Positions 9,600 to 24,575 of a DNA stretch of 32,000 nt are shown piece after piece (the stretch's first letter is position 1; each line of letters opens with the position of its first letter). The stretch comes from Delftia acidovorans NBRC 14950 (lineage in GTDB: Bacteria; Pseudomonadota; Gammaproteobacteria; Burkholderiales; Burkholderiaceae_C). The stretch lies in assembly GCF_001598795.1 (NCBI RefSeq), contig NZ_BCZP01000009.1, positions 240,001 to 272,000 of the forward strand, written 5' to 3'. The notes beneath the pieces were generated by a model, which saw only the letters and a program-made list of their open reading frames with translations, was not told where the DNA came from and searched no databases. A program made the translations under genes and the position numbers.

Positions 9600-9638
9600 A
9601 ACCGAAGGCCAGGCCGGCCGCATCCAATGCGACGCCTG

Positions 9639-9700
9639 GAGCGTGTGATCAGCAGCGCGAAGAGCCAACGCGGGCACTTGAAAGTGCACACCACGCTCTA
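9639..9700. repeat. Truncated second copy (right arm) of the palindromic element at 170-438
   Basis: gtgatcagcagcgcgaagagccaacgcgggcacttgaaagtgcacaccacgctcta aligns with 382-438 (gcgatcaccagcgcgcagagccaacgcgggtacttaaaagtgcacaacacgctcta) with a few mismatches. Only about 9 nt of the left arm (gagcgtgtg) remain. Confidence 0.65.
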
Positions 9701-10444
9701 GATCTGTACAGCGCGGCCGATGAACTGAATGGGCCCTGTCGGACGTCCGCTTGGGGAGCCGCCTTCTGGCTCCAGGGTGAGCTCGAAAAGCTGATTCGGC
9801 TGCAGAGGCGGCAACTGGTCTACCGGCACTTCGATGGCTTCGCCCGGTTTGACCAGACCCAGGGACACCGGCGCCTTCCAGCCGTCGGCCTTGGTCCAGA
9901 ACTGCAGGGATTTTTCCGCCGGAATGGCATCCTTGCCCAGTGGCACAAGGCGCAGACGGCCTTCAGACTGGGCCTGGACCACCCACCCGGCGGCCTGATT
10001 CTGCGGCGCGGCCAGCACGACGAAATAACGCGGGGCAGCCGGCGGTGATGCCTCTCGCACCACCAGCACAGCCGCGAGCAGTGCTGCAGCTGCAAAGCCG
10101 CCACCCGCCAAGCCGCGCCAAAGGGCGAGGCTATCCCAGTGCCACCAGGCACCACGCTGTGCGCGAACCGCTGGCCGGGCCGGCTTGACGCTGGCCGCGA
10201 TGCGCTGCCACAGCGTTGCCGAGGGCTCGATGGGGGGAGTCAGCCGAACCAGCGGCAAGAGCCGTTGCTCCCACGCCTGCACGGCCGTGCGCAACGCAGG
10301 CTCGTAGGGCAGACGGGATTCGATGGAGCGGCGCTGGGCTGCATTGAGGGTGCCCAATACGTACTCGCCGGCCTGCATCTGGAGATCGTCCGGGGAGCCG
10401 TCATCCGTCGACTCTGAGGGATTGGGGTGGGTGTCGCCGCTCAT
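9698..10444 (-). CDS. Anti-sigma factor, RskA (anti-sigma-K)-like, single-pass membrane protein
   Basis: Start MSGDTHPN forms an ATGA overlap (10441-10444) with the sigma gene stop. It has the N-terminal anti-sigma segment AGEYVLGTLNAAQRRSIESRL, one TM helix (LAGGGFAAAALLAAVLVV), and a C-terminal domain with LQFW and FELTLEPEGGSP typical of RskA C-terminal domains. Confidence 0.8.
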   Translation of the reverse strand: MSGDTHPNPSESTDDGSPDDLQMQAGEYVLGTLNAAQRRSIESRLPYEPALRTAVQAWEQRLLPLVRLTPPIEPSATLWQRIAASVKPARPAVRAQRGAWWHWDSLALWRGLAGGGFAAAALLAAVLVVREASPPAAPRYFVVLAAPQNQAAGWVVQAQSEGRLRLVPLGKDAIPAEKSLQFWTKADGWKAPVSLGLVKPGEAIEVPVDQLPPLQPNQLFELTLEPEGGSPSGRPTGPIQFIGRAVQI

Positions 10445-11019
10445 TGCATGCACTCTCTCAGGGCACGCAGTCCGCGTTGAACCCAGGCCTTGACCGTACC
10501 AAGCGGCGCCTGCACACGCGCCGCAATTTCGCTGTGGCTGCAGCCGTCCACGTAGGCGTGCAACAGGCAGGCGCGGCGCTCGGGCTCCAGCCGGTCGAGG
10601 CAGTCGCCAAGACGACCCAGCGTCGCCTGCCGCTCCCATTCACTGCCGCCTTCCTTCCAGGCCAAAAGTGCGGCCTGGGCGTCATGCGCTTCATGGGCCG
10701 TTTCATCCAGCACGGTTTCGCGTGCGCCATCCCGTACACGGTTGAGGGCGGCGTGCCGCACCACGCTGTAGATCCACCCTCGACCACTTCCGCGATTGCC
10801 GTCGAAGGTGGATGAGCGGTTCCAGATGGAGACAAACGCATCGTGCAGCACGTCTTCCGCAGCGGCGCGCTCGCGGACGATGCGCAGTGCCACGCCGAGG
10901 AGAAAGCGCGCCTCGGCCTCATAAATCCGCTGCAAAGCATCGCGTTCGCCGCGTGCACATGCATGCAATGCTGCGTCATGGTCGAAAGCTTCGTTGTTCT
11001 GGGAGGCAGCGGGCGGCAC
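10441..11019 (-). CDS. ECF (extracytoplasmic function) sigma-70 family factor
   Basis: 192 aa. Region 2 reads DVLHDAFVSIWNRSSTFD...WIYSVVRHAALNRVR. Region 4 reads CLLHAYVDGCSHSEIAARVQAPLGTVKAWVQRGLRALRE. The only in-frame start near the N-terminus is GTG at 11019 and there is no clear SD, so the exact start is uncertain. Confidence 0.88.
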   Translation of the reverse strand: MPPAASQNNEAFDHDAALHACARGERDALQRIYEAEARFLLGVALRIVRERAAAEDVLHDAFVSIWNRSSTFDGNRGSGRGWIYSVVRHAALNRVRDGARETVLDETAHEAHDAQAALLAWKEGGSEWERQATLGRLGDCLDRLEPERRACLLHAYVDGCSHSEIAARVQAPLGTVKAWVQRGLRALRECMQ

Positions 11020-11084
11020 GAAATGGAGCGAAGGGGGCGTTGCAGGAAATCCTTCGCCCAGTGTATCCGCGCCGCTGCCGGCTC

Positions 11085-11657
11085 TTACATGGGCTTCCAG
11101 AAGATGTAGTCGGCCTGGTACTTCACGGTGGTCTTCTGGCCCTTGTTGGCGGCCATGCAGGGCTTGTCAGCCGGCGCCACTCCACCCTGGAGCGCCACGC
11201 GCTGGATGTAGCTCACACCCTCCAGCGCGCCGCTGCCCATGGCTGGGTTTGCCTTCACCAGCTGGTAAGGCAGATTGCCTGCGCCGGACGGCGCCACAGC
11301 CAGCTGGGTGGCGGTGAGTTTGGAGCCGTCGTTGGCCTCCCAGGTTGCGGGGGGACCGTAGTAGCGGCCCACTTGTTTGCCCATGCGGTCCTTCAGCACA
11401 GCATCGGGTCCCACAAAGACCCATTCCGTCTGGCCAGGCGCGTTGGCCTTGTCGCGGCACTCGTAGGTGATGTCACCGCTGCCTACGGTCTCCCACGCGA
11501 CCTTGTTCCCTGCAGGAACCTGGATGGGGGCGGGCAGCGATGCCTGGGAGAAAGTGCTGGCCGGCTTGTGCATCGAGCCACAGGCAGCGAGCAGGGCCGC
11601 TGTGGCTACAGCGAAAGAAACGGCGGCGGTGCGGGATGCGGAACGAGAGGTCAACAT
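11085..11657 (-). CDS. DUF3455-family secreted lipoprotein
   Basis: Start MLTSRSASRTAAVSFAVATAALLAACGS carries a lipobox (LAAC), with GGAGA 7 nt upstream. The mature part has VPAGNKVAWETVGSGDITYEC...WVFVGPDAVL...GRYYGPPATWEANDGS...YIQRV, as I remember for DUF3455 proteins that sit next to SigK-type ECF pairs. Confidence 0.72.
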   Translation of the reverse strand: MLTSRSASRTAAVSFAVATAALLAACGSMHKPASTFSQASLPAPIQVPAGNKVAWETVGSGDITYECRDKANAPGQTEWVFVGPDAVLKDRMGKQVGRYYGPPATWEANDGSKLTATQLAVAPSGAGNLPYQLVKANPAMGSGALEGVSYIQRVALQGGVAPADKPCMAANKGQKTTVKYQADYIFWKPM

Positions 11658-11987
11658 TGCGATTCTCCAAACAGTTTTGTGAAGGGGACTGAAGCAGCGC
11701 ATTTTTGGGCTGCTGCTGGTACTACCCGCCATCGCATCGTTTGGATGCACCCCATGCAAAAATATTTTCGACAAATGCCAGCGCCAGACTCCATCAGACT
11801 GCGGTTGGTGACATTCTTGACCTGCAGCACCCGGGCCACCTCTCCCGAGGCGCGCGGCTCCCAGTAGGCCACGCGGCCGGTGAGCCAGGGCAGGGGAGAG
11901 AACTTGACGCCTGCTTCCCAACCATCATTGATGGAGGGCCTGAGGTTGCGATCCTGCGTGCGGCAGGCGTCGATGCCCGAGCCGATC

Positions 11988-12935
11988 TCAAAGATGGGCG
12001 AGCATGTCCTTTGACGGAACGAAGAAGGCAATGCCTGTCACCGCCGCCGAGAAGTCAAGGATGCGGTCATGGAGCGGGGGCGGGCTTCCGATGAACATCC
12101 GTTCGAGCATCTGCTCGATCACCCACAAGTGCCTGGAATAACCGATGAAATAGGTCCCGTACTCCTTGAGTGCAGGCCTCGCGAAGGGCATGTTGTCTCG
12201 CAGGATGTCGTGCTCGACGCCGTCCTGCGTGATGGTGCACAGCGTCTTGTGTGACTTCTGTTCCGCCTCCGAGGCATCGGGAAGCTCGGTGTTGGTGAAC
12301 TTCTTTCGTCCAATGATCTGCTCCTGGGCTTCGGTGCTCAGGCTTTTCCATGCCGGGAGGTCGTGGAGGTACTTCTGTACAACGACATAGCTTCCGCCCG
12401 CATGTTCAGGATCTTCCTCGCCCACTATCGTTGAGGCCGGCAGCGCCAGGCCGACTGGATTCGCCGTGCCATCGACAAAATCCAGCAGGTCGCGTCCGTC
12501 GAAGTACCGGAATCCGGCGACCTCATCCATGTCCGCGACTGTCCCTTCCAGGGCCTCCAGGAGCATCTGCTCGAACGCCACGATGAGATCCATGGACCTG
12601 GCGCGGATGTGGAACAGCAGGTCCCCCGAAGTAGAGACTGCCACATGGGTGGCGCCCCGGATTTCGCGGAATGGATGGAGCTCGGCTGGAAGCGGGGTAC
12701 CGACAAGCGGACCCCACACATCGGCACCGATGCCCACGTTGCAGGTAAAGGTCCCGGTCACGTCCCGTACAAGGACGTTCTTGATCAGGCCGTCCAGATC
12801 GCCGAGCACGGATCGCACGGTGGAGAGGGACGCTGCGTCTCTTGCAACGGTCAGGACCAGGAAGGATGCGGCGATCGACAGCGCTGCATCAATTTGCTGG
12901 GGCTCGGCCTGGCGCGGGATCGTAGGTGTGGTCAT
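11988..12935 (-). CDS. Dye-decolorizing (DyP-type) haem peroxidase
   Basis: 315 aa with FRYFDGRDLLDFVDGTANP (GxxDG motif), GGSYVVVQKY, GRKKFTNTEL, ILRDNMPF and GTYFIGYSR. There is no signal peptide. GC content is visibly lower than in flanking genes. Confidence 0.9.
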   Translation of the reverse strand: MTTPTIPRQAEPQQIDAALSIAASFLVLTVARDAASLSTVRSVLGDLDGLIKNVLVRDVTGTFTCNVGIGADVWGPLVGTPLPAELHPFREIRGATHVAVSTSGDLLFHIRARSMDLIVAFEQMLLEALEGTVADMDEVAGFRYFDGRDLLDFVDGTANPVGLALPASTIVGEEDPEHAGGSYVVVQKYLHDLPAWKSLSTEAQEQIIGRKKFTNTELPDASEAEQKSHKTLCTITQDGVEHDILRDNMPFARPALKEYGTYFIGYSRHLWVIEQMLERMFIGSPPPLHDRILDFSAAVTGIAFFVPSKDMLAHL

Positions 12936-12986
12936 TGGAAGTACCGGCAGATGGACGAGATGGGCGTCAGGGATGGCGCATTATCT

Positions 12987-13013
12987 GGCCCAACCGGCCC
13001 AACCGGCCCAACC
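12987..13013. repeat. Tandem 9-mer (ggcccaacc) x3 plus a partial fourth unit
   Basis: Read directly: ggcccaacc ggcccaacc ggcccaacc ggcacc. It lies 52 nt upstream of the DyP start codon (minus strand), in intergenic DNA. Confidence 0.85.
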
Positions 13014-13029
13014 GGCACCAGGAGCAACA

Positions 13030-13350
13030 TCACGGACGGTTTCGCCAGATCCTCACTCCCATTTTTTCGGCATCTTCCCGGTACTCCTGGATTTTCTGCT
13101 TCAGGTACTCCTGCAGCGGCCTGCCGACCAGGGAGTAGGGGTACAGGTCGAAGTTCTCCAGAAGTGCCATATAGCCAGGAAGGCCCATCGCCTTTTGCAA
13201 GGTCTCGGACCAGTAGCGTATTGCCGATGGAGGCGTGCCTGCCGCCATATAGAGACCCCTGACGGTCATCTGGGTCACATCGACGCCTTGCTCCGTTGCG
13301 GTCGGGATGTGCGCGAGTTTTCCGGGTACGCGGATAATCGCATCGGGATT
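13030..13350 (-). pseudogene. C-terminal fragment of a Bug/TctC-family periplasmic tricarboxylate-binding protein
   Basis: The in-frame translation PDAIIRVPGKLAHIPTATEQGVDVTQMTVRGLYMAAGTPPSAIRYWSETLQKAM...LQEYLKQKIQEYREDAEKMG matches the last ~105 aa of Bug proteins (...PT..EqG......w.G...p.GTP...). An in-frame stop at 13351-13353 removes the rest. Degraded upstream pieces may extend to about 13600. Confidence 0.6.
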
Positions 13351-13665
13351 TCAAGAGTAAATCATGCGGTGCGAAGTGTTCGATTTACGGCTGACTGCAT
13401 CGACGCATCCCTGTACCGTGCGCGGCCATGGATACACCGTCGTTTCGCAGCCAGCACATGCCAGTTCGCCCTTCCCAGGAGCTCCCGTTCTTAGGGCGTG
13501 ATCCGCTGGACCATGGCTGTGCGATCGCTGGGCTATGTCGAGTAACGTCTGCATGGTCGCCCTCTGCGCTAGCAGAACTTCGCCAGCCACGACGGTCAGC
13601 CATTGCCGAAGTAGTTCAGTTACGGTCGGTGAACTTAGCCTTCACGTCTTACGTGACTGAGCGGG

Positions 13666-14202
13666 TCAAGCACGAGCACTTATAACCAGCGCTTCAAGAT
13701 CAAGTAGAAATGACCTGATTTGTGACTCGTTCTCGGGTAGGCATAGAAACTTCACTGCGTCTTCCGGGGATTTCCCAATGAGCGGGATACGCAAAAACAG
13801 ATGTTCAAGAAAATTGCTGCTTACGGTCGAAAGTACCAGCCTCAGCGAAGCCAACATATCGTCACCTCGGTGCGATGCATGTACCAAGGCAATCGGCTTG
13901 CCGATCACTTCGACGCGTGAAACCAACCAGTCGATTGCATTCTTGAGGCCGCCGGGAATTGCACGGATGTATTCGGGGCTCGAGATGATGATGCAATCGT
14001 GTGCGCAGACAATTTCCAGGAATTCACGCACGGCCATGGGCGTTCTCTCCCCTTGCGCATCCGGCGAGAAAACGGGTAGTGCCTGGAGACCATGAAAAAC
14101 TGAGACATCAATGCCCAGCGGCGCCAGGTTTTTCATGGTTTGCAACAACGTCGTATTCGTGGATGCTTCGCGCGTACTGCCTGAAATAGCCAGGATTTTC
14201 AT
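13666..14202 (-). CDS. NADPH-dependent FMN reductase family flavoprotein
   Basis: MKILAISGSTREASTNTTLL...IIISSPEYIRAIPGGLKNAIDWL is the classic FMN_red pattern. AAAGAGGA lies upstream. The gene is markedly AT-richer than its neighbours. Its ATG overlaps the stop of the upstream MFS gene (ATGA at 14199-14202). Confidence 0.85.
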   Translation of the reverse strand: MKILAISGSTREASTNTTLLQTMKNLAPLGIDVSVFHGLQALPVFSPDAQGERTPMAVREFLEIVCAHDCIIISSPEYIRAIPGGLKNAIDWLVSRVEVIGKPIALVHASHRGDDMLASLRLVLSTVSSNFLEHLFLRIPLIGKSPEDAVKFLCLPENESQIRSFLLDLEALVISARA

Positions 14203-15398
14203 GATGTCCTCTTTGCTTGCCAAGCATCGGCCATGCCGGGCCGGCGTCCGGACCATGGCAGGCAGGCGCACAGCGCGATCAGGCCCAGCACCAATACCGC
14301 GCCTCCAAGCACGCCGAGGCCCGTACCGAAGGCCGCGCTCACGCCCATCGCCACCAGCGCTGCGCTGCCGATCTGACAGAACCCGACCAGCCCCGATGCA
14401 GTGGCCGCATGCCCGTGTTCGCTGGCGATGGCCCCGGACACGCCCAGCGACAGCGACGAGCCATTGGAGAGACTGACCAAGCACATCGGCAGCACCACGG
14501 CTGCCGCGCCCTGCAGCCCCGATTCCACCACGGCCGCGAATGCCACGCCGCCAAGCACGAAGCACACGACGCCGGCAAAGAGGATGCGGTCGTAGGGCCA
14601 GCGATCAAGCAGCTGCCTGGCAAGCAGGTTCGCGCCGATGATGCCCGCCGTCAGCGGCAGGTACAGCCAGCCGCTTTGTTCCTCGCTCAGCCCTTGGCGC
14701 GCAAAAAGAAACGGCGACTGGGTCAGGTAGACGAACCAGGCGCAATAGATCGCGCAGACCACCAGCGTATAGCGGCGAAAAATCCGGTCCCGCAGAACAT
14801 GACTGAAGCCAGCAAAGGGCGCGGTGCGGGTACGGGCGGCAGAGGGAAGCGTTTCCGGCAGCCACTTCATCACCATCAGCAGAGCCACGACGCCAAACGC
14901 AGCGACGAACAGGAAGTCAGACCGCCAGCCGAAAGCCGCAGCCAGGTGCCCGCCGATGGCAGGCGCCAGGGCGGGCGACAGCGACACCAGCGGGTAGATC
15001 ACCGCATAGACCTTGGCAGAGGTACGTTTGTCGCAGGTGTCGGCGATCAGTGCCCGGCCCACGACCAGGCCCGCAGCCGCGCCGACCGCTTGCAGCATGC
15101 GCCACGCCAGGAAACCGTTGTAGCTGGCGGAGATGGCGCAGCCCACCGAGCCGACGATGTAGAGAGCGATGCCAGCCAGCAGCACGGGCTTGCGGCCATT
15201 GCGATCCGACAGCGGGCCGTAGGCCAGCTGGGCAATTGCCAGTGCCAGCAGGTAGAACGAGACGGTCTGCGGCATCTGCCAGTCGGCAACGCCAAACTCC
15301 GTGGCCATGCCCGGCATGGCGGGCAGATAGACGTCCGACGCGATCAGGCCGAAGGCACTGAGCATGGCGACGGTCAAGGTGAAAGATAAGCGAGGCAT
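14199..15398 (-). CDS. MFS efflux transporter, Bcr/CflA drug-resistance subfamily
   Basis: SDVYLPAMPGMATEFG, LAYGPLSDRNGRKPVLLAG and 12-TM hydrophobic periodicity. The start at 15398 (MPRLSF...) is preferred, with an alternative ATG at 15461. Confidence 0.85.
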   Translation of the reverse strand: MPRLSFTLTVAMLSAFGLIASDVYLPAMPGMATEFGVADWQMPQTVSFYLLALAIAQLAYGPLSDRNGRKPVLLAGIALYIVGSVGCAISASYNGFLAWRMLQAVGAAAGLVVGRALIADTCDKRTSAKVYAVIYPLVSLSPALAPAIGGHLAAAFGWRSDFLFVAAFGVVALLMVMKWLPETLPSAARTRTAPFAGFSHVLRDRIFRRYTLVVCAIYCAWFVYLTQSPFLFARQGLSEEQSGWLYLPLTAGIIGANLLARQLLDRWPYDRILFAGVVCFVLGGVAFAAVVESGLQGAAAVVLPMCLVSLSNGSSLSLGVSGAIASEHGHAATASGLVGFCQIGSAALVAMGVSAAFGTGLGVLGGAVLVLGLIALCACLPWSGRRPGMADAWQAKRTS

Positions 15399-15499
15399 GG
15401 CAGTTCCTGGCAGCCAGGCGAACGGGCTGCGCGTCAAGGGTTCAGAAGGGATGAGCGCCATGCTACGGAGCTGCCTTCAATGTGAAAATGCACAAAATA

Positions 15500-15514
15500 G
15501 CAGCCTATAGCTGC
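15500..15514. promoter_or_regulatory. Candidate LysR-type operator dyad in the divergent MFS/LysR promoter region
   Basis: gcagc-ctata-gctgc is a perfect 5-bp dyad inside a larger imperfect palindrome (aaatagcagcctatagctgcatattt). It lies 30 nt upstream of the LysR ATG in an AT-richer spacer. No binding data are available. Confidence 0.3.
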
Positions 15515-15543
15515 ATATTTGCAGTACGAGCAATGGGGCAGCG

Positions 15544-16413
15544 ATGAATTGGGATGACGTGCGGATATTCCTGGCAATCCACCGTGCAGGCACCCTGCGT
15601 GGGGCGGCTCAGCAACTGGCCATCGACCAGACCACGGTGGGCCGGCGCCTGGCCGGGCTGGAGCGGTCGCTGGGCAGCCGGCTGTTCCTGCGCACCACGG
15701 GCGGCCTGGTGCTGGCCGGAACCGGCCAGGAAGTGCTGCGCATGGCCGAAGACATGGAGCGCATGGCCGTCTCCTTCGAGCGCCGCGGCGAAGGTGCCGA
15801 TGCGCGTGTGGCCGGGGAGGTGCGTGTGACCACCACCGACGCCTTGGCGGTGGATTTCGTGGTTCCCGCCCTCGAACACCTGCGTGCCCGCCATCCCGAG
15901 GTGCGGGTGATCCTGAGCACCACGAGGCGCCAGCTCGATCTAGCGCGACGGGAAGCCGACATTGCTGTCCGCACCCTGCGGCCGGAGCAACCGGACCTGA
16001 TCGTTCGCCAACTCGGCTGCTGGGAAGTGGGCTTGTACGCTACCGAAGGCTATCTGGCAAAAAATGGGGAACCGCAGCCCGGAAAAGGCTTTGCAGACCA
16101 CGACATCGCGCTCTACCAGGAGGGTGTGACCGGCCGGCAGGACGACACGCTGGCAGGTGAATCCAGGGCACAGGGTCGCATAGTTGCCGAACTGGATTCG
16201 AGCCTGATGCTTGCGACCTTCGTGCGCGCTGGCCTGGCCCTAGGCGAATTACCCGAATACGTGGCCCGACGCGACCCCACGCTGGTCAGGATGTGGCCGC
16301 AGTGCCAGCGGGCCAAGCCCTACGAGGCGTGGTTGGTGTTGCACCAGGACCTGGCGCGCACGGCCAGGGTGCGTGTCGTAGTGGAGTCGATCACCGCGGC
16401 TTTCGGCGATTGA
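15544..16413 (+). CDS. LysR-family transcriptional regulator (divergent from the MFS pump)
   Basis: MNWDDVRIFLAIHRAGTLRGAAQQLAIDQTTVGRRLAGLERSLGSRLFLR is a canonical LysR wHTH. A substrate-binding domain follows. Confidence 0.9.
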   Translation: MNWDDVRIFLAIHRAGTLRGAAQQLAIDQTTVGRRLAGLERSLGSRLFLRTTGGLVLAGTGQEVLRMAEDMERMAVSFERRGEGADARVAGEVRVTTTDALAVDFVVPALEHLRARHPEVRVILSTTRRQLDLARREADIAVRTLRPEQPDLIVRQLGCWEVGLYATEGYLAKNGEPQPGKGFADHDIALYQEGVTGRQDDTLAGESRAQGRIVAELDSSLMLATFVRAGLALGELPEYVARRDPTLVRMWPQCQRAKPYEAWLVLHQDLARTARVRVVVESITAAFGD

Positions 16414-16526
16414 AAGGCAGACATGTGCAAGCCACATATTTGATTTGGGTGGCGACGGCCGAGAGGCGATAAGGACGAGCAGCGTTTCATCTTCGAACAA
16501 TGAACTGAGCTGCGGGCAGTTCAGAT

Positions 16527-17655
16527 GTGAGCACCGAGGTGAGTGCTACGACCTTGGTCGTGGCCAAGCGCTTGGCGGATTCGGTGCGCGAATGGATCAA
16601 GCGCAATGAGTCCGATGAGGCTGTACCAGGGGACTCGAAGAACGATCGGCTATTCGACACCTGGCAGGACCATGGCGTCATCGACCTGAACCCGGCTACC
16701 GGGCAGGCTATCTGGCATGTGACAGTGCAAGGAGAGGCATCCGAAGCTGCGGCAGATCGAGGAGGTTATGAGCACGACCTGGCCATGCTGCGATTTCCCT
16801 TGGCCAAGGTCTTTTCGCACGAGAGCAAGTATCCGGCGCCCATGCAAGGCAGATTGGTCCTGCGGCAAAAACGCAAGGATGAGGCCGGTGAGGGCGCTGC
16901 CTCACAGCAGGCCGTGCAGCTGCAGATTCCTGCGGCAGGTTCTGGTGGTAAGGAGGATGCGGCAGGCCATGCACCCGAAGTTGCAGCATTACCAGCCAGT
17001 GCTCGCGCGCCTGCAGCTGCTCCCAAGGTGCCCAGCAAGCAGGAATTGAAGCTTGCGGCAGTCATGCGTGAACCGGCATTCAGGGCGCCACCTGGTACGG
17101 CAAAGCGGCCTGCGGCGAAATCCGAACGCGGAACCGGCGATGCGACCGAAGAAAGGCCCACGGCCGCCGAAGCCGGCGCGGGCCAGGGAGGAGGGCGGTG
17201 CGATGCGCGAGCAATCATCGGAAGCTGCCGCAGGCCTGGACGAGGCCCCGGCTTCGCCAGAGCCTCCAGCACCGCCTACCGCCCAAATTCTTTCATCCGA
17301 AACTGCCGCAATACCCACTGAGGCGGCCATGACACGCACGCCTGTATCCGCGGCAACGAAGCGCCATATGAGCGTAGCTGCGGAGTTTCGGAGCTTGAGC
17401 GACGAACTCGATGACTTGCCACCGGTCGTGGTGCGTTCCAGGACGGAGCCGCAGGCTTCACGCGCGGATGAGCCCCAGCCGGTGCTGCTCTTGCAGCAAC
17501 GACTCAAGATCGAAGGCCAGGAAAGGCCTGCGCACGAGCCCAGCGAGTTGGCGTTGGACTTCATGCGGTGGGTACAGCAGGGCTTGGTCGATCGTGCGTG
17601 GTTCTGGTGGAGCTTGGTCTGGAGTGGCTTGCGCAATCCTCATCAGGTGTTCTGA
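16527..17655 (+). pseudogene. Remnant of an ICE relaxase (MOBH / PFL_4751-type TraI): N-terminally truncated, frameshifted, C-terminally truncated
   Basis: Two overlapping ORFs in frames 0 and +1 (16527-17321 and 17053-17655). The first has ...LFDTWQDHGVIDLNPATGQAIWHVTV...LAMLRFPLAKVF. From memory this resembles the region after the HD domain of ICEclc/PFGI-1-type TraI (...VLQDHG.L.P..DGKAIW..TV...). An Ala/Pro/Glu-rich linker follows. The second ORF ends with LALDFMRWVQQGLVDR, which resembles the very start of the TraI_2_C domain, then terminates. The only start is GTG. The HD-domain part is absent. Confidence 0.5.
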
Positions 17656-17826
17656 AAGCTTAGCGCTGGAGTCAACGAAGAAACTTCTGAACATAACGTC
17701 CGCATAGTTGGTGAATGCTACCGATATGAGTCGCTTTAAAGCTCACTTTTCTGGCCGTCATTTGATTGATACGATGTATATTATGTTAAATAACAAACGC
17801 AGATAACGGCCTGAAAACCAAGTCAT

Positions 17827-17843
17827 GGCACTCCTCCAGTGCC
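17827..17843 (-). terminator. Possible intrinsic terminator downstream of the ATPase gene (could act bidirectionally)
   Basis: ggcact-cctcc-agtgcc is a 6-bp stem. On the minus strand it is followed by atgacttggttttc, and on the plus strand by ttgcctgcttcgttttc. It lies 16 nt after the stop codon of the 732-aa gene, at the edge of an AT-rich spacer. The stem is short. Confidence 0.35.
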
Positions 17844-17858
17844 TTGCCTGCTTCGTTT

Positions 17859-20057
17859 TCAGCTGTTCAAGGCGGTTTCCAGGCCTTCAAGCTCCTGCTT
17901 CAGCAAAAGCGCAGTTTCCTGTGGCTCGAACTGACGCTGCAGCAGCGGGATGGTGAAGACGTAGCTTGCATCGTGCACGCCGTGGGTTTCATCGCGGCGC
18001 AGGACGTAGGCCAGTTGCAGGCGCGCCAGGGACCGGCGCAAGGCCTGGGCCTGGCCGGTGGCGCCGTGGGACTGGACCAGGGCGTCGAGTGCGGTCAGGC
18101 TGGTCTGTCCTTGCTGGGCCGTGTGATAGACGGCGATGCGGTCCAGGCGGCAGGCCTGTTCGTCGGTGCTCAAGCGGCCCCATCCCACCAGCGCGTCCTG
18201 CACGGGCTGGGATGCCATGGCCTGGCGCAGGTGGCGTTCTTCGATGACGCGTTCGTCGGGCCCCAGGGCTTCCAGGCATTCCTGGCAGAGGATGGCGACC
18301 AGGTTGGCGCGCCTGCCGCTGGCCTCTATCAGCCGCTCGGCCAGAGCGTCGTTGGCAAAGCCCAGGCGCAGCCTGCGCAGCGGTTCGGTGGCCAGGGCGT
18401 GACATGCCGCTGGCTCCAATCCACCAATGGCCAGGATTTCGCCGAAGTTGCGCAGCGGCGATTGGTAGTCGAGCAGCGCTGCCGCGTACAGATCCCAGAA
18501 TCCCGCCAGCATGAACCAGCAACGGCCCTCCTCGCTCAGCGCGCGCAAGGCGCTGAGCTGGGGGTAGCCATTGCGGGCTTCGTCGCGGAAGAACAGGTCG
18601 GCCTCGTCGATCAGCAGGTACAGCCGCCTGCCCTGCGACTGCTTTTGCAGGTGTTCGATGATGGCCTCCAGCGGTGTTTCCACGGGAAGGCCGAACTGCG
18701 TGGCCAGGCGCGGCGTAAGGCGGTGGTCGCGCAGCGAGATGTAGTGGCAGGCGATGGCCGGATGCTCCTGCAGCCGCCGCTGCACGGCCTTGAGCAGGCT
18801 GCTTTTGCCGAGCTGGCGTCCTCCCACGACCAGGTAGTTGGCCGGTTCGCGGTTGAGCACGCGGGCCAGCAGGCGCTCGCGGCCAAAGAAAACGTCCTCG
18901 CGCGTCACGCCGCCGCGCGTCTGGTAGGGCGATATGCGCGTGACCTGCAGCTGCGTGGCCAGCAGCCGCAGCAGCACCTGGTCCGGAGCGCCGCCCAGCA
19001 GCCATTCGGTCTGCCCCGGGCTGTCCAGCAGCACGTGCAGGTTGGCGCGGTCCTGGGCATGGCGCTGCAGCAGCGGCATGGGCGACTGGGGATGGTGCGA
19101 GCTCACGATGAGCACCACATCGCCGCCGGTTTGCAGCAGGCGCAGCTGGCGCACGAGTTCGCCCTCTTCCAGCTCCGCTGGGGGCGCATAGACCAGGCAA
19201 CGGCCCAGGGCGATGGGCAGCTCGGGCGGCAGCGTCCACTCGAACATGTCGCCGGGCACGGGCCACTCGCCTTGCGCCGGTTTGCAGACGGCGGACAGGC
19301 GTTCGGCCAGCGCCCGCACGCGGGCGCCTGGGCTTGCGCCGGCAAGGCGCAGGGCCCGCTGCCAGTCCGGCGGGCGTATGCCCGCAGCGCGCAAGACGGC
19401 GGAACGGCGGCCGGTGAGCTGCAGCAGCCGGTCCAGCTGGGGCAGATGCTGGTAGGGCTTGCGGCGCAGGCGCTCGGGCTTGAGCTGTGCCGGGCCTATC
19501 AGCGGATGGCGCACCAGCCACAGCAGGGCCAGGCAGCCAAAGACCAGTGCGCTGGTCCAGATGACGCTGCGCAGCCATCCAAAGGGTTCATGCTCGGGCT
19601 GGCCCGGCGAGGGGCTGCAGTTCAGCGGCAGGTAGCGCGGCGGAGTCGGAGGCAGGCCGCCCTGGCAGCTCCAGTCCCAGCGTTGCCTGTCCAGTTGCAG
19701 CAGGACCTGGGTTCCGGCGAGCACGCCCATCTGGCTGTCGCGCACCACGTCCGCCTGCAGCACGAATGGACTGGGCGAGCTCATGCGCACGCGTGGTTCG
19801 GCAATGTCCGGCGCCACGCTGGCCAGGTCCTGCGGCCAGCTTTCATGCTGGCGCACATAGTCCATCAGGGCCAGGCGCCACAGGATGATTTCGTTCCAGA
19901 CCCGGCCCGAGCTTTCCGCGCCCTGCAGGCTGCTGCGGGTGACGGGGTTGTAGCGGGGCAGCAGGATGGCCGTGCCGATGAACAGCGTGACCAAGGCGAG
20001 CAGCGCGGCGCGCCACCAGGATCTGGGCAGTTGCACAAGCCGACCCAGGCCGCTCAT
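17859..20057 (-). CDS. Two-TM membrane protein with a pilin-like Cys-pair ectodomain and a cytoplasmic Arch_ATPase/ORC-like AAA+ ATPase (uncharacterised architecture)
   Basis: 732 aa. TM1 is residues ~14-33 (WWRAALLALVTLFIGTAILL). The ectodomain is ~34-160 and ends ...RWDWSC(131)QGGLPPTPPRYLPLNC(147). TM2 is ~161-182 (WLRSVIWTSALVFGCLALLWLV). It has FFGRERLL-x-...VVGGRQLGKSS (Walker A, nt 18801-18824) and GRRLYLLIDEAD (Walker B, nt 18597-18617). Amino-acid composition is protein-like, whereas the antisense 781-aa ORF looks like a shadow. Confidence 0.8.
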   Translation of the reverse strand: MSGLGRLVQLPRSWWRAALLALVTLFIGTAILLPRYNPVTRSSLQGAESSGRVWNEIILWRLALMDYVRQHESWPQDLASVAPDIAEPRVRMSSPSPFVLQADVVRDSQMGVLAGTQVLLQLDRQRWDWSCQGGLPPTPPRYLPLNCSPSPGQPEHEPFGWLRSVIWTSALVFGCLALLWLVRHPLIGPAQLKPERLRRKPYQHLPQLDRLLQLTGRRSAVLRAAGIRPPDWQRALRLAGASPGARVRALAERLSAVCKPAQGEWPVPGDMFEWTLPPELPIALGRCLVYAPPAELEEGELVRQLRLLQTGGDVVLIVSSHHPQSPMPLLQRHAQDRANLHVLLDSPGQTEWLLGGAPDQVLLRLLATQLQVTRISPYQTRGGVTREDVFFGRERLLARVLNREPANYLVVGGRQLGKSSLLKAVQRRLQEHPAIACHYISLRDHRLTPRLATQFGLPVETPLEAIIEHLQKQSQGRRLYLLIDEADLFFRDEARNGYPQLSALRALSEEGRCWFMLAGFWDLYAAALLDYQSPLRNFGEILAIGGLEPAACHALATEPLRRLRLGFANDALAERLIEASGRRANLVAILCQECLEALGPDERVIEERHLRQAMASQPVQDALVGWGRLSTDEQACRLDRIAVYHTAQQGQTSLTALDALVQSHGATGQAQALRRSLARLQLAYVLRRDETHGVHDASYVFTIPLLQRQFEPQETALLLKQELEGLETALNS

Positions 20058-21304
20058 GCCTGCAGCACCGCCACGGCGGCTTCGCGGGCAATGTCGCAGC
20101 GCCAGTGCAGATGGGCACCCTCACCTGCTCCGCGCACCTGCAGCAGATTGCCCCAGAACAGGCGCCGCAGCACGGCATCCTGCAGATAGGGGCGTGCACG
20201 GCCCAGCGATGCCGCATCCACCAGCCCGCGCAGTTGCTCGCGCGTGGCAGGTTCCTGCGCCAGGGGCAGCAAGGTCTGCCACAGGCGGGCGCTGGCCACC
20301 AGATGGGCGCGCAGCAGGGGCGAGTGCACGGAAGCGACGCCCACGCCCTGCTCCATCAGCCATTGCAGCGCTTCCTCGAAAAGCGCGGGATGCCCGCCCG
20401 TCAGCGCCTGCAATGCCTCGATGACCTCGGCCGGCCAGGCCGTGCCGGGCCAGCGCTGGTGCGCCATCAGGGCCAGGTCTTCCAGCGTGGGATCGGGCCA
20501 GTGGGCCACCTGGCCGATGTTGAGCAGCGACAGGTCACCGCTGCGGTACTTGAGGTCGGCCAGGGCCTCGCTGCCGCACAGCAGCAGGTGCAGGCGGCCG
20601 CTGTGCATTTCGCTGAGGCTGCGCAGAATGCCGGCCAGTGTCTCGCGCAGCTGCGCCGTGCCCTGCTCGAAGCGGCTGACCAGGCAGAACAGCCGGCCGC
20701 CGGCCAGCAGGCGCTTTTCCAGCAGGGCCTCGAATTCGTAGTCCGAGCCCACTTCGCCCAGCCCGCATTGCCGGCCCAGGGCCGCAAAGTAGTCGGCCGC
20801 AGCCGTGCTCACGCTGTAGGGCGGCTGGATGTGCAACACCGCCTCGGCGCCATACTGGGCGCGGGCGCGCAGCAGCAGTTCCTGGCGAAACGGGGGCTGC
20901 CCCCAGTGCGCGGGCGACAGCAGCATGGTGATGGCATAGGGCCGGGCATGGGCCAGCTGGGCGAAAAGCCGGTCCATGAAGCCTGCAAAAGGCTGGGCGC
21001 CAGCGGCGGCGGCCTGCAGCGGAAACTCCGTGGCAAAGCCAGCGGCGGAGAACAGGCGATTGGTCTCCGCCTCCGTCAGACGCAGGTACTGGGCGCAGGC
21101 GGCCAGCCGGTCGCGCGAGCGCGGATTGGGCAGGGAAACCCCATTCCTCCAGTTGTTGACGGCTTCCCGGCTCAGCCCGATCTCGGTGGCCACGCCCGAG
21201 GCGCTGGCGCGGATGCGGCGCATGTACAGCCCCAGCAAATGGCCGAAATCCTCGTGAACGCCTGGTGCCACGGCAGCTCCCTGTTCAATGGCGGTGGGCT
21301 GCAT
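20054..21304 (-). CDS. XRE-type HTH protein fused to a degenerate (P-loop-less) STAND/AAA-like domain
   Basis: 416 aa. The HTH is FGHLLGLYMRRIRASASGVATEIGLSREAVNNWRNGVSLP. The central region aligns by eye with the neighbour's ATPase core but has SPAHWGQPP instead of GGRQLGKSS and LVSRFE instead of LIDEAD. A TGGHPALFEEAL lid-like motif is present. Its stop overlaps the start of the 732-aa gene (ATGA at 20054-20057). Confidence 0.8.
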   Translation of the reverse strand: MQPTAIEQGAAVAPGVHEDFGHLLGLYMRRIRASASGVATEIGLSREAVNNWRNGVSLPNPRSRDRLAACAQYLRLTEAETNRLFSAAGFATEFPLQAAAAGAQPFAGFMDRLFAQLAHARPYAITMLLSPAHWGQPPFRQELLLRARAQYGAEAVLHIQPPYSVSTAAADYFAALGRQCGLGEVGSDYEFEALLEKRLLAGGRLFCLVSRFEQGTAQLRETLAGILRSLSEMHSGRLHLLLCGSEALADLKYRSGDLSLLNIGQVAHWPDPTLEDLALMAHQRWPGTAWPAEVIEALQALTGGHPALFEEALQWLMEQGVGVASVHSPLLRAHLVASARLWQTLLPLAQEPATREQLRGLVDAASLGRARPYLQDAVLRRLFWGNLLQVRGAGEGAHLHWRCDIAREAAVAVLQA

Positions 21305-21451
21305 CAGCGACGGCTCCGCTCAGGAAAACAGCGCCTGCTGGCGCAGATCCATCCTGCCGGGGCCATGGTCCGTATCCTCATCCTGTTCACCCTCTCCTGG
21401 GATTCAGCTGGTCTTGTGCAATTTGTTTCATTTTGCCGAGCGCGGATTGTC

Positions 21452-22273
21452 TCAGGATGCGGCATCGCCGCCACCCTGCCCCGCAAACTCCCGTCGCGCG
21501 CCGGCCATGCGGTACAGAGGCAGCACCACCGCCAGCACCAATCCCAAAGCCAGCCAGAACCACAGGCCCTTGCCTCTGAAGGCCAGGGCCGCAATGACGG
21601 TGAAGGCCACGGCCTCGCACAGCCCGCGAAAGCCGGCCCGCAGCATGAACAGCCCCACGATGCCCTGCACGGGCGACACGCCGCTCTTGCGCAGGCTGGC
21701 CATGGTGTCCAGCAGGGCCTGCACGGATTCCTGGGCCTGGCGGTCACGCTCCTGGTCCCGCTCGCGCAGCCGGGTGATGGCCATGGGCTGGGCCGGATTG
21801 GTCAGGGCGGTGCCGTCGGCGCCCTCTTCCTGGCCGGGCTGCGGATAGACCTCGCCATCCGTATCGACCAGCACCTGGCGCTCCGGGTAACGGGACAGCC
21901 AGGCGTGGTGGCTGACCCATTGGCCAGCATCGAAGTGGTAGCGCTCGCTCTCGCCCACCTGGTCGTAGAAGACATGCAGCACCGCCGCCTGCAGGCCGTG
22001 CTGGAACAGCGTCTCCAGCAATCGCCAGGGCATGCCGGCCGTGGTGCGGGTGTCAAAGCCCAGCTCCAGGTGCTGGGGATGGCCCAGGGCGCTGGCATTG
22101 GCCCAGTCGTCATCCCACAGCGCGGACCGGTCCAGGGCGGGGTCCAGCTCATGGATCCAGCGCTCGGCCTGCTCCCAGGACTGCCGGGCCAAGTACTGGC
22201 AGATCAGTTGCACGCGGCGCAGCTGCAGGGGCGTATCGAAGAAAAGATAGAGGTGATGGACGTTGCTGGACAT
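21452..22273 (-). CDS. Hypothetical membrane-anchored protein (soluble N-domain, charged linker, two C-terminal TM helices)
   Basis: The frame is open from 22504, but residues before MSSNVHHLYLFFDTPLQL (ATG at 22273) are Arg/Cys/Gly-rich and look non-coding. The C-terminus has GIVGLFMLRAGFRGLCEAVAFTVIAALAF and LWFWLALGLVLAVVLPLY. No family was recognised and there is no clear SD. Confidence 0.55.
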   Translation of the reverse strand: MSSNVHHLYLFFDTPLQLRRVQLICQYLARQSWEQAERWIHELDPALDRSALWDDDWANASALGHPQHLELGFDTRTTAGMPWRLLETLFQHGLQAAVLHVFYDQVGESERYHFDAGQWVSHHAWLSRYPERQVLVDTDGEVYPQPGQEEGADGTALTNPAQPMAITRLRERDQERDRQAQESVQALLDTMASLRKSGVSPVQGIVGLFMLRAGFRGLCEAVAFTVIAALAFRGKGLWFWLALGLVLAVVLPLYRMAGARREFAGQGGGDAAS

Positions 22274-22478
22274 GGCGGGCCTGAGGCGTTTGCAGGAATG
22301 CCGCGATTGTTCAATTGCAGCCGCCAGCCGGCCCTCCCAGGCCTGTCCAGCAGGCGGCTGGCAGGCGCTCCCACCGGTTGACATTCTGTCCACTGCAAGA
22401 AGCGGGATGCAGGCGCTGCGGCGGCGCCCTAGACTGCGGCAATTGCCCACAGCGCCCATACCGCCAACCGCGCCCGCC

Positions 22479-23210
22479 ATGCACAACCTCCGTCTTTTCG
22501 ACAACGAAGCTTGCGAATCCGCCCCGCCCGGCCACTGGACGCAGATGGAGCACCAGCTCGATGAGCAAGGCTGCGCGCGCCTGCCCGGCCTGCTGGATGC
22601 GCAGCAGTGCCGCGACCTGGCCGCTCTTTACGCAAGGGAGGACGGCTTTCGCTCCCGCATCGTCATGGCACGCCACGGTTTCGGGCGCGGCGAGTACCAA
22701 TATTTCGACTACCCCTTGCCACCGCTGCTGCAGCGCCTGCGCGAGCAGCTGTATCTGCGCCTGGCGCCGGTGGCCAATCTCTGGAACCAGCGCATGGGGC
22801 TGGAGGTGCGCTATCCGGACCGGCTGCAGGACTTCCTGGCGCGCTGCCACGCGCAGGGCCAGTTGCGGCCCACGCCGCTCATCCTTCAATACGGTGCGGG
22901 CGACTACAACTGCCTGCACCAGGATGTCTATGGAGAGCATGTGTTTCCGCTGCAGGTGGTGCTGCTGCTGTCGCGGCCCGCGCGGGACTTCACGGGTGGC
23001 GAGTTCGTCATCACCCAGGCCGATGGCGACCGGCAGCGGGCCGATGTGATGGCACTGGACCAGGGCGATGCGCTGGTCCTGGCCGTGCGCCACCGGCCCG
23101 TGCCCGGGCGGCGCACCGGCTACCGCCGCGTGGCCATGCGCCATGGGGTCAGCCGCATCCACAGCGGCCATCGCCATACCGTGGGGCTGATCTTTCATGA
23201 CGCACTTTGA
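22479..23210 (+). CDS. 2OG-Fe(II) oxygenase superfamily protein (COG3826 / 'Oxygenase-NA'-like, alkB-associated)
   Basis: MHNLRLFDNE... It has an HxD in CLHQDVYGEHVFPLQVVLLLSRPARDFTGGEFV, the distal His in MRHGVSRI, and Arg in GHRHTVGLIFHD. The family assignment is from memory of alkB-linked oxygenases. Confidence 0.75.
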   Translation: MHNLRLFDNEACESAPPGHWTQMEHQLDEQGCARLPGLLDAQQCRDLAALYAREDGFRSRIVMARHGFGRGEYQYFDYPLPPLLQRLREQLYLRLAPVANLWNQRMGLEVRYPDRLQDFLARCHAQGQLRPTPLILQYGAGDYNCLHQDVYGEHVFPLQVVLLLSRPARDFTGGEFVITQADGDRQRADVMALDQGDALVLAVRHRPVPGRRTGYRRVAMRHGVSRIHSGHRHTVGLIFHDAL

Positions 23211-23222
23211 TGGATGGCCGGT

Positions 23223-23873
23223 ATGAGCACGCTGGATCTTTTCGCCGATGAACATCCCACCGGGGCCGAATCCATAGGTCCGCAATCCGTGGTGCTGCGC
23301 GGCCATGCCCTGCCCCATGCCGTGCAGTTGCTGGAGGCGGTCGAAGGCATTGCGGCGCGGGCGCCGCTGCGCCATCTGGTTACGCCGGGCGGCTTCACCA
23401 TGTCGGTGGCCATGACCAACTGCGGCGCGCTGGGCTGGACCAGCGACAGGCGCGGCTACCGCTACAGCGCCATCGACCCACTCAGCGGCCAGCCCTGGCC
23501 GGCCATGCCGGCCGTGTTTGTCCGGCTGGCGGGCGAGGCGGCCGCTGCGGCGGGGTTCGATGGCTTTGTGCCCGATGCCTGCCTCATCAACCAGTACCTG
23601 CCCGGCACCCGGCTTTCCCTGCACCAGGACCGCGACGAACACGACCTGGGCGCGCCCATTGTCTCGGTGTCCCTGGGCATGCCCGCCACGTTTCTGTTTG
23701 GAGGACTGGCGCGGACAGACAGCACGGCCAGGGTGCCGCTGCAGCATGGCGACGTGGTGGTCTGGGGCGGTGTGGATCGGCTGCGCCACCACGGCGTGTT
23801 GCCGCTCAAGGACCAGCCTCACCCGCTGCTGGGCGGGCGGCGCATCAATCTCACTTTTCGCAAGGCGGGCTGA
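23223..23873 (+). CDS. alkB: Alpha-ketoglutarate-dependent DNA/RNA alkylation-repair dioxygenase AlkB
   Basis: MSTLDLFADE..., GWTSDRRGYRYS, PWPAMP, ACLINQYLPGTRLSLHQDRDE (HxD), VSVSLG, WGG..RLRHHGV and RINLTFRKAG match E. coli AlkB blocks. An alternative ATG lies at 23214. Confidence 0.9.
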   Translation: MSTLDLFADEHPTGAESIGPQSVVLRGHALPHAVQLLEAVEGIAARAPLRHLVTPGGFTMSVAMTNCGALGWTSDRRGYRYSAIDPLSGQPWPAMPAVFVRLAGEAAAAAGFDGFVPDACLINQYLPGTRLSLHQDRDEHDLGAPIVSVSLGMPATFLFGGLARTDSTARVPLQHGDVVVWGGVDRLRHHGVLPLKDQPHPLLGGRRINLTFRKAG

Positions 23874-24575
23874 ATGGTTGGACGGTCTGAAATGGATAGG
23901 CTCAACGGCCAGGATCGCTTCGCCCGCCTGGATTGGGCGCGGATTGCCGCTGAGCTCGATGCCGAAGGCCATGCCCGGCTGCCGCAGCTGCTGACTGCGG
24001 ATGAAAGCCGCGCCTTGGCCCGCGAGGCGGCAGCCGCGTCTGGCCTGCCGCCCTGCGTGCAGGCATGGCGCCCGGTGCTGTACGGGCATCTGCTGGCCCT
24101 GGCCAACCGCTGGCGCGAACACATGGGCATGATGCCTGGGTTGCCAGGCTGCTTCGAGGATTTCATGCGTCCGGGCCGGCAAGCAGGCCAAACGCAGCCA
24201 CAGCCACATCTGCTGCGCGTGCCGCAAGCGGGTCATGCCCCGCTGCGTTCATACAGCGAAGGTGCGGCGGTGTTTCCGCTGCAGCTGGTGCTGCTGCTGT
24301 CCCGGCCGGGCCAGGATTTCGAGGGCGGCGAATTCGTGATGACCGAGCAGCGCCCGCGCATGCAATCGCGCCCCATGGTGCTGCCGCTGGGCCTGGGGGA
24401 TGCGGCCATCATCGCCACGGGGCCGCGCCCGGTGCGCGGTGCGGCGGGCTTTTACCGCGTGCATCTGCGGCATGCCATCAGCCGCGTTCACCGTGGCGAG
24501 TGGCTGGGTCTGGAGCTGCTTTTGCACGACGTGCCCCAGGCGCCAAAGGCTCTGCAAACGGACCGCTGGCTATAA
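23874..24575 (+). CDS. Degenerate paralog of the 22479-23210 oxygenase (predicted catalytically inactive)
   Basis: It shares ARLPxLL and VFPLQLVLLLSRPGQDFEGGEFVMTEQ with the upstream paralog. However, it has PLRSYSEGAA where the paralog has CLHQDVYGEH (His and Asp both lost). It also has GEWLGLELLLHD where the paralog has GHRHTVGLIFHD. Its ATG directly abuts the alkB stop. Confidence 0.7.
   Translation: MVGRSEMDRLNGQDRFARLDWARIAAELDAEGHARLPQLLTADESRALAREAAAASGLPPCVQAWRPVLYGHLLALANRWREHMGMMPGLPGCFEDFMRPGRQAGQTQPQPHLLRVPQAGHAPLRSYSEGAAVFPLQLVLLLSRPGQDFEGGEFVMTEQRPRMQSRPMVLPLGLGDAAIIATGPRPVRGAAGFYRVHLRHAISRVHRGEWLGLELLLHDVPQAPKALQTDRWL

Follow-up and report, generated by a model that had tools for sequence, protein, structure and literature searches.

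Delftia acidovorans NBRC 14950 encodes a 732-amino acid protein that joins a pilus-subunit-like head to a signaling nucleoside triphosphatase (NTPase) of the STAND class. The gene is found in a 32,000-nucleotide stretch of contig NZ_BCZP01000009.1 (positions 240,001 to 272,000), referred to here as the window. The periplasmic input domain of this fusion protein appears to descend from a type IVa major pilin, a filament building block reused as a fixed receptor. Together with a putative helix-turn-helix (HTH) protein encoded directly upstream, the fusion protein would form a two-protein transmembrane STAND switch with a transcriptional output, and the whole chain of this proposal is considered a little better than an even bet.

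The periplasmic head and its membrane helices

A sequence-only reading of the window had drawn attention to positions 19518-20057, which are residues 1-180 of the 732-amino acid open reading frame (ORF) at 17859-20057 on the minus strand. The chain is composed of a first transmembrane (TM) helix, TM1, a 126-residue periplasmic domain, a second helix, TM2, a cytoplasmic domain, and an nSTAND1-type P-loop NTPase. This architecture is identical in 116 homologs, all of them full-length. Hydrophobic stretches are found at residues ~13-37 (Kyte-Doolittle >1.5) and ~161-189, in agreement with the earlier placement of a hydrophobic helix at residues 14-33 and of a second TM helix at 161-182 that returns the chain to the cytoplasm. 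AlphaFold2 (AF2) models the two helices at residues 12-32 and 160-183. Arg and Lys are enriched ahead of TM1 (R6, R12, and R16), and the 33 residues behind TM2 are strongly basic, holding seven Lys or Arg. Because the NTPase must be cytoplasmic, residues 35-160 are assigned to the periplasm with high confidence; hydropathy and charge both put them outside the cytoplasm, as the sequence-only reading had assumed for residues 34-160.

Three more distant homologs carry a precomputed match to PF00114 (Pilin). Upon rescanning, P0114, P0117, and P0120 score 27.3, 26.2, and 32.0 bits (cut-off 22). Their matches span positions 5-108 of the 108-position profile and fall, at residues ~48-148, exactly between the two TM helices. 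The most divergent members, P0131 (22.3 bits) and P0124 (23.7 bits), also exceed the cut-off. At E <= 1, PF00114 is matched by 17 of 34 non-redundant N-termini (best E = 2.5e-8), and no other family is matched by more than two of the 34. When the N-terminal profile of the family is compared with all PDB sequences, the top four matches are type IV pilins, led by the K122-4 pilin at E = 0.06 and followed by Neisseria PilE. The top four are again pilins with the full-length family profile. HMMER aligns PilE residues 6-22 starting within TM1 and places the invariant P34 on pilin Pro22. On this alignment, the homology seems to extend into TM1, the equivalent of pilin alpha1-N. The PF00114 matches in homologs and the lead of pilins in the PDB profile search indicate sequence homology, beyond a resemblance.

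The AF2 model, built with the family alignment, has a mean predicted local distance difference test (pLDDT) of 89.8, with 96-98 in the head and 90-93 in TM1, and an overall predicted template modeling (pTM) score of 0.76. The order of elements is that of a pilin: the TM1 helix, a kink at P34, a helix at residues 38-71, and four beta-strands (residues 90-96, 99-104, 117-123, and 128-133), followed by a Cys-bounded loop and the TM2 helix. The second helix, equivalent to alpha1-C, ends at an invariant W74-P75. The sequence-only reading had recognized an amphipathic continuation of alpha1 ending in 'WP' here, and RVWNEIILWRLALMDYVRQHESWPQDL occupies residues 52-78 of the 732-amino acid protein. 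Both segments that it described as beta-like, FVLQADVV and GTQVLLQL, are covered by modeled strands. Against the PDB, the ten best Foldseek matches of the model are exclusively type IVa pilins, and the matched pilins include 2hi2, 1qve, 5vxx, 8p3b, 1oqw, 1ay2, 5jw8, 5kua, and 4v1j (probability 0.97-1.00, target-normalized TM-score 0.41-0.56). N-terminally truncated pilins are among these matches, so it is the head that is matched and not just the long helix. As a control for specificity, a search of a viral structure library with the same model returned nothing meaningful. Thus, the alpha-beta roll that the sequence-only reading had anticipated is predicted, and its suggestion of a pilin-like ectodomain is borne out by PF00114 in homologs, by the PDB profile ranking, and by the AF2 and Foldseek results.

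The loop bounded by cysteines was also likened to the D-region of pilins at the outset. Cys131 and Cys147, with 15 residues between them, are invariant in 117 of 117 sequences. The motif of this region, W-x-C-x2-G-x-PP-x-P-x2-YLP-x2-C, is highly conserved and aligns to 'W.C...kYLPktC' of the K122-4 pilin. All members of the non-redundant family set share W74-P75, P34, and G115. Taken together, the periplasmic domain is assigned with great confidence to the homologs of type IVa major pilins.

Several results weigh against this assignment. Residues 1-201 of the window protein alone do not match PF00114 even at E <= 10, and its N-terminal 200 residues match no Pfam family (E <= 10) and no PDB sequence with phmmer. 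The PDB profile E-values are marginal (0.06-0.5), though consistent in their ranking, and the Foldseek E-values are modest, about 1e-3 with TM-scores of 0.4-0.56. The assignment therefore comes from homologs, profiles, and predicted structure and not from the window sequence alone. The lack of a significant family match to the window sequence and the modest structural E-values would fit a resemblance by chance or convergence, or an ORF that is an artefactual fusion of a pilin and an ATPase. These explanations are effectively refuted: PF00114 is above its cut-off in several homologs across the full profile, pilins lead three independent searches, and the architecture is kept under purifying selection in the 116 full-length homologs, with relatives in 255 species genomes. 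NCBI has also independently labeled a truncated member, P0124 (a 221-amino acid fragment from Tahibacter caeni), as 'pilin, partial', whereas full-length members are named 'AAA family ATPase'. The annotation of the family differs with the end of the protein that an assembly retains.

TM1 might instead be a Sec signal peptide that is cleaved behind the near-invariant G-[ST]-A30, so that the mature protein would be a type I receptor that crosses the membrane once and has its N-terminal head free. This arrangement is unlikely. The positive N-region (R6, R12, and R16), a hydrophobic run of just ~17 residues from R16 to P34, and the small residues at -3/-1 (G28 and A30) kept in most members would suit a signal peptide, but a comparable pattern of small residues is present in genuine pilins, which are not cleaved at that point. 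TM1 is better conserved (mean pairwise identity 0.37) than TM2 (0.26) or the ectodomain (0.29), and the invariant P34 lines up with Pro22 of pilins, which lies within an uninterrupted alpha1 helix. The pLDDT of TM1 and the pTM of the model are likewise unusual for a disposable signal peptide.

The head folds like that of a type IVa pilin and is a pilin homolog, but it fails the signal, processing, and polymerization criteria of a pilin. The class III signal with the prepilin-peptidase motif G↓F-T-L-x-E is found in 0 of 117 sequences, as the sequence-only reading had reported for the window protein. An acidic residue is absent from anywhere in TM1 in all 117, so there is no Glu5 equivalent, and the position next to that of Glu5 is Arg in 114 of 117 (R16 is near-invariant). 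An equivalent of pilin Phe1 is absent from the family. Behind the head, the chain continues with TM2 and ~550 cytoplasmic residues, which tether the C-terminus. Without a prepilin-peptidase site or Glu5, and with its C-terminus tethered, the protein cannot be processed or polymerized, and the description of a fixed, non-polymerizing pilin-like domain holds. We infer the sensor role that the sequence-only reading gave this domain. A genuine prepilin gene lies within ~6 kb of the cassette (the fusion gene and its upstream partner) in one of 85 sources, and no pil genes are among its recurrent neighbors.

The ratio of nonsynonymous to synonymous substitution rates (dN/dS) is ~0.19 for the ectodomain and 0.07 for the NTPase core (25 independent ortholog pairs). 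The ectodomain is under purifying selection and is not decaying. With a mean pairwise identity of 0.29, compared with 0.66 for the NTPase core, it is the fastest-diverging soluble part of the protein; the juxtamembrane segment (0.49) is more conserved than TM2 or the ectodomain, and the C-terminal helical region (0.50) is conserved as well.

A head with this ancestry could have the cell's own type IV pilus system as its ligand, docking on membrane pilins or on the assembly platform and reporting the size of the pilin pool or pilus activity. This would refine the STAND switch and keep the same architecture, and it is judged rather improbable. The Beta- and Gammaproteobacterial lineages that host the family carry type IVa pili, and the family is limited to such lineages. 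Homology of the module to type IVa major pilins takes in the membrane helix, and conservation of the D-region and of the sheet surface points to a conserved protein as partner. Inner-membrane pilins that act as signals are a precedent (PMC7196804; PMC6058289). On the other hand, there is no linkage to pilus genes, given the single source with a nearby prepilin gene, and the absent Glu5 and Phe1 are the residues that mediate pilin-pilin and pilin-machinery contacts. In its fullest form, the head would be a built-in pilin mimic, held by its alpha1-N-like helix amid the genuine pilins of the inner membrane, that reports the pilin pool, retraction, or pilus-dependent phage attack to the STAND switch, a proposal that is similarly doubtful.

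The STAND module and its partner

Behind TM2, a Pro-rich juxtamembrane segment has the consensus RHPLxxPxQxxPxRLxRxP, in which P185 and P201 are invariant and H184, P194, and L197 are at least 90% conserved. The NTPase core matches nSTAND1 (PF20703) at residues 386-589 with 29.0 bits (cut-off 27.1) and AAA_22 with 33.8 bits (cut-off 27). It is preceded by the lead-in SPYQTRG...FFGRE, and its Walker A (GGRQLGKSS) and Walker B (LLIDEAD) motifs are intact and invariant in the family alignment A2. No Pfam repeat family is found as a C-terminal sensor arm of the TPR or WD40 type, a feature usual in STAND proteins though not a strict hallmark, and the protein ends ~140 residues past the core. The NTPase and C-terminal part have no match among PDB sequences, and an NCBIfam scan gave nothing useful. 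On its profile score and motifs, the ATPase is an nSTAND1-clade STAND NTPase, atypical in being anchored to the membrane, lacking repeats, and having a pseudo-NTPase partner with a putative HTH.

The alpha/beta domain at residues 216-372 is modeled confidently (AF2 pLDDT 85.4) and has no Pfam or PDB sequence match. Foldseek returns weak matches to proteins of the PD-(D/E)xK fold, the best being HindIII (E = 0.047), with N.BspD6I, Mus81, and RPB5 as further weak neighbors. A nuclease identity was rejected because alignment A3 has no conserved catalytic triad. As a lead only, the domain may have a nuclease fold that has lost its activity and serves as a scaffold.

In each of the 84 loci examined, the partner gene is directly upstream and shares the strand of the fusion gene. 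Its stop codon overlaps the ATG of the fusion gene (ATGA), and the two genes are translationally coupled. The partner is better conserved than the fusion protein. Its profile finds an HTH repressor, 2kpj, as the best PDB match (E = 0.042). In place of Walker A is a conserved LLSxAHWGQPPFR (window 20885-20923), and in place of Walker B is FCLVSRFEQG. An hhalign comparison aligns partner residues 175-311 with fusion protein residues 450-589 (E = 2.7e-5), where the DEAD of the fusion protein is opposite a gap. The HTH signals, the degenerate P-loop, and this alignment mean that the partner is most simply read, from its sequence, as an XRE-type HTH fused to a P-loop-less, inactivated paralog of the NTPase.

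For the switch as a whole, the pilin head would bind a periplasmic or envelope ligand, and the signal would be relayed via TM2 and the juxtamembrane linker. The STAND module could then change its nucleotide state or oligomerization and pair with the pseudo-NTPase of the partner, governing the access of the HTH to DNA. Control of the HTH might occur by membrane sequestration and release or by co-assembly, in analogy with MalT and other STAND transcription factors.

Some of the evidence counts against this proposal. We infer both the interaction of the two proteins and the transcriptional output, and the searches identified no ligand, operator site, or regulon. The partner's Pfam scores are below the cut-off of 27 for HTH_31 (23.2 bits) as well as AAA_35 (23.0 bits), and the hhalign probability of the alignment with the NTPase of the fusion protein is just 74%. 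A promoter and terminator scan of 17300-22700 gave background levels and is uninformative. Lastly, the nSTAND1 clade has been described in counter-invader systems (PMC8195603), which favors a role in defense, weighed below.

Other genes in the vicinity may belong to the system. A homolog of the 272-amino acid ORF at 21452-22270, which has no family match, occurs upstream, in the same orientation, at 48 of the 84 loci (an example of an equivalent is L008:4150-4632) and is absent from Lysobacterales and Undibacterium. In Acidovorax, a further TM protein of ~156 amino acids is encoded between this homolog and the partner (36 loci). Both proteins are possible accessory components. In locus L001, the two genes upstream of the partner are unrelated to the 272-amino acid ORF, the third of the window. 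The coordinates of all features are collected in the table.

Table. Features of the fusion gene, its partner, and the candidate accessory gene in the window, with the evidence for each.
Feature	Coordinates	Strand	Evidence
Fusion gene, pilin-like domain and STAND NTPase, 732 aa	17859..20057	-	ORF; 116 full-length homologs
TM1, residues 14-34, pilin alpha1-N equivalent	19956..20018	-	Hydropathy; AF2 helix 12-32; HMMER against PilE
Periplasmic type IVa pilin-like head, residues 35-160	19578..19955	-	AF2; Foldseek; PF00114; dN/dS
D-region-like loop, Cys131 to Cys147	19617..19667	-	Cys invariant in 117/117; K122-4 pilin alignment
TM2, residues 161-183, chain back to cytoplasm	19509..19577	-	Hydropathy; K/R-rich next segment; AF2 helix 160-183
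Pro-rich juxtamembrane segment, residues 184-215	19413..19508	-	Conservation
Cytoplasmic alpha/beta domain, residues 216-372	18942..19412	-	AF2 pLDDT 85.4
STAND P-loop NTPase core, residues 373-590	18288..18941	-	Pfam nSTAND1 and AAA_22
Walker A GGRQLGKSS, residues 412-420	18798-18824	-	Motif
Walker B LLIDEAD, residues 481-487	18597-18617	-	Motif
C-terminal helical region, residues 591-732	17862..18287	-	No Pfam repeat or other family
Partner gene, predicted XRE-type HTH and degenerate STAND-like module, 416 aa	20054..21304	-	84/84 loci; HTH_31; AAA_35; hhalign
Partner HTH, residues 19-84	21053-21250	-	HTH_31, below cut-off
Candidate accessory gene, ~272 aa from internal Met, soluble N-domain and C-terminal TM hairpin	21452..22270	-	48/84 loci

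Distribution, genomic surroundings, and a possible role in defense

In a scan of one genome per species, relatives are encoded in about 255 of 185,579 species genomes. The hosts are Beta- and Gammaproteobacteria: Comamonadaceae, Oxalobacteraceae, the Pseudomonas nitroreducens group, Lysobacterales, Azoarcus, and Chromatiales. Identity to the window protein is ~90% in Delftia, ~63% in Acidovorax, and ~55% in the Pseudomonas nitroreducens/otitidis group, and homologs are also found in Undibacterium and Massilia. In an exhaustive N-terminal search across 1.84 billion representatives, only 16 clusters contained the module. These share the fusion architecture except for incomplete fragments of 59-351 amino acids and one metagenome protein, P0133. 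The N-terminal alignment profile had at least four matches in a database of 5.8 billion proteins. In databases, members are named only 'AAA family ATPase', 'ATP-binding protein', or 'hypothetical protein'.

The flanking genes differ between genera and are syntenic within Acidovorax, as expected for a stable chromosomal regulatory cassette. Delftia holds two versions of the cassette, with 91% (L005, Delftia tsuruhatensis NBRC 16741) and 61% (L034, Delftia sp. PS-11) identity to the window protein. The latter value resembles that of Acidovorax members (about 61-64%) and suggests horizontal exchange of the cassette among Comamonadaceae.

In the comparison with L005, homology ends ~100 bp past the stop of the fusion gene (17760-17858), and these first ~100 bp are conspicuously AT-rich. 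The lower-GC segment at 9610-17760 is replaced in L005 by a different ~3 kb. In the window, this segment encodes an RskA-like anti-sigma factor, a Dyp peroxidase, an FMN reductase, an MFS transporter, a LysR regulator, and an orphan 264-amino acid ORF. Given the break in homology and the replaced segment, a strain-variable region adjoins the cassette. A plasmid search with the downstream flank gave no match. Divergent from the cassette, on the plus strand at 22263-24575, are three tandem 2OG-Fe(II) oxygenase genes (Oxygenase-NA, AlkB-like 2OG-FeII_Oxy_2, and Oxygenase-NA). They are probably a DNA/RNA alkylation-repair cluster and are not kept beside the cassette in other genera. A short, GC-rich inverted repeat with a T-run behind it, GCGCC-AGCA-GGCGC, is found at 21331-21347 on the minus strand, ~27 nucleotides upstream of the partner start. 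This repeat could either terminate the upstream ORF or act as an operator, and such sites occur at background number in the region.

The cassette could alternatively be an envelope-surveillance system for anti-phage or other conflict, of the Avs / nSTAND type. The pilin-like head would act either as a decoy or as a detector of invaders that exploit type IV pili, for example pilus-specific phages or their ejection proteins. Once the STAND NTPase is activated, the output would be the cytoplasmic domain at 216-372, membrane disruption by oligomerized TM helices, or the HTH partner, leading to a protective or abortive response. This explanation is a minority possibility. The NTPase falls in nSTAND1, the clade defined in counter-invader systems, but PADLOC-DB 2.0 gives the fusion protein only a weak match, to PDC-S01 (E = 0.0011, 15.9 bits), and none for the partner or the third ORF. 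The domain at 216-372 has weak nuclease-fold matches; nevertheless, it has no conserved PD-(D/E)xK residues, and no effector is recognizable. The ectodomain is the fastest-evolving soluble part, yet its dN/dS of 0.19 and conserved D-region give no domain-wide arms-race signature. The patchy distribution with flanks that differ by genus, the two divergent versions within Delftia, and the adjoining strain-variable segment would suit a defense system, whereas the synteny in Acidovorax is not that of hypervariable islands. The obligatory partner bears a predicted HTH.

Comparison with known systems

Type IV pilins are known as polymerizing subunits of pili, pseudopili, and related fibers. If the STAND switch is real, it would be a new use of the pilin fold, in which a structural subunit has been turned into a receptor. 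It would extend the STAND NTPases, normally cytoplasmic sensors, to transmembrane sensing, and the split into an active ATPase and an HTH-bearing pseudo-ATPase would be an unusual design. Should the head act as a pilin mimic, it would be the first filament subunit converted to a receptor for its own filament system and part of the first STAND NTPase with extracytoplasmic sensing. The family is small, yet it is spread widely among Beta- and Gammaproteobacteria of environmental and opportunistic habit (Delftia, Acidovorax, the Pseudomonas nitroreducens group, and Lysobacterales), and it offers a testable handle on a system so far annotated merely as 'AAA family ATPase'. In the literature searched, no account was found of a fusion between pilin and STAND modules or of a pilin sensor domain bracketed by TM helices, and a STAND signaling NTPase with an input domain derived from a pilus subunit has no known precedent.

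With type IVa major pilins (Neisseria PilE; P. aeruginosa PAK / K122-4 PilA; PF00114), the fusion protein shares a half-hydrophobic membrane-spanning helix with a kink Pro, an amphipathic alpha1-C ending in 'WP' (compare 'GEWP' in PilE), a four-stranded antiparallel sheet, a C-terminal Cys-Cys D-region, and the membrane topology of an unassembled pilin. Unlike these pilins, it has no leader peptide, prepilin-peptidase site, Phe1, or Glu5, and its C-terminus is not free. It cannot be pulled out of the membrane to join a filament. In the fusion family the D-region is strongly conserved; in type IVa pilins it is hypervariable.

With the nSTAND1 NTPases, the fusion protein shares the score of its core, the lead-in 'sPYxxxxxF...FFGRE', and intact Walker A and B motifs (PMC8195603). 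Work done by Kaur, Burroughs, Iyer and Aravind (2021, eLife) on this clade does not mention pilins, and the members described are cytoplasmic, with an N-terminal effector or adaptor and C-terminal repeat sensors (PMC8195603). In contrast, the fusion protein has no repeats, carries a periplasmic pilin-like input between two TM helices at its N-terminus, and is co-encoded with a probable pseudo-NTPase paralog that bears a putative HTH.

STAND regulators with a fused HTH include the MalT-like proteins and the XRE-HTH + NB-ARC proteins of actinobacteria. The cassette would share with MalT-like and HTH-STAND regulators the combination of a STAND module and an HTH output, and the partner resembles an HTH-STAND protein. 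It differs in that the putative HTH is on a separate, P-loop-degenerate paralog, while the active NTPase is anchored to the membrane without an HTH and its input is extracytoplasmic.

A metagenome protein of 983 amino acids, P0133, has DnaJ, RDD, and TM2 domains followed by four tandem Pilin domains. PF00114 scores 133.9 bits over four stretches, ComP_DUS is also matched, and no class III signal is found in its pilin domains. In P0133 the pilin head has a second use outside pili, independent of the first. Like the fusion protein, it is a non-pilus protein with type IVa pilin heads that lack the class III signal; unlike it, the heads are tandem and C-terminal, there is no NTPase, and the PF00114 score is much stronger.

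A possible functional analogy exists in sensors that respond to pilins. In P. aeruginosa, PilS senses PilA in the inner membrane, and in Caulobacter, PleC responds to PilA (PMC7196804; PMC6058289, which cites Kilmury and Burrows 2016). These systems share with the fusion protein an inner-membrane signaling protein that has a pilin alpha1-N-type helix or head as its input. In PilS and PleC, the pilin is a separate, genuine one and the sensor is a histidine kinase, whereas in the fusion protein the pilin module is covalently attached and the transducer is a STAND NTPase.

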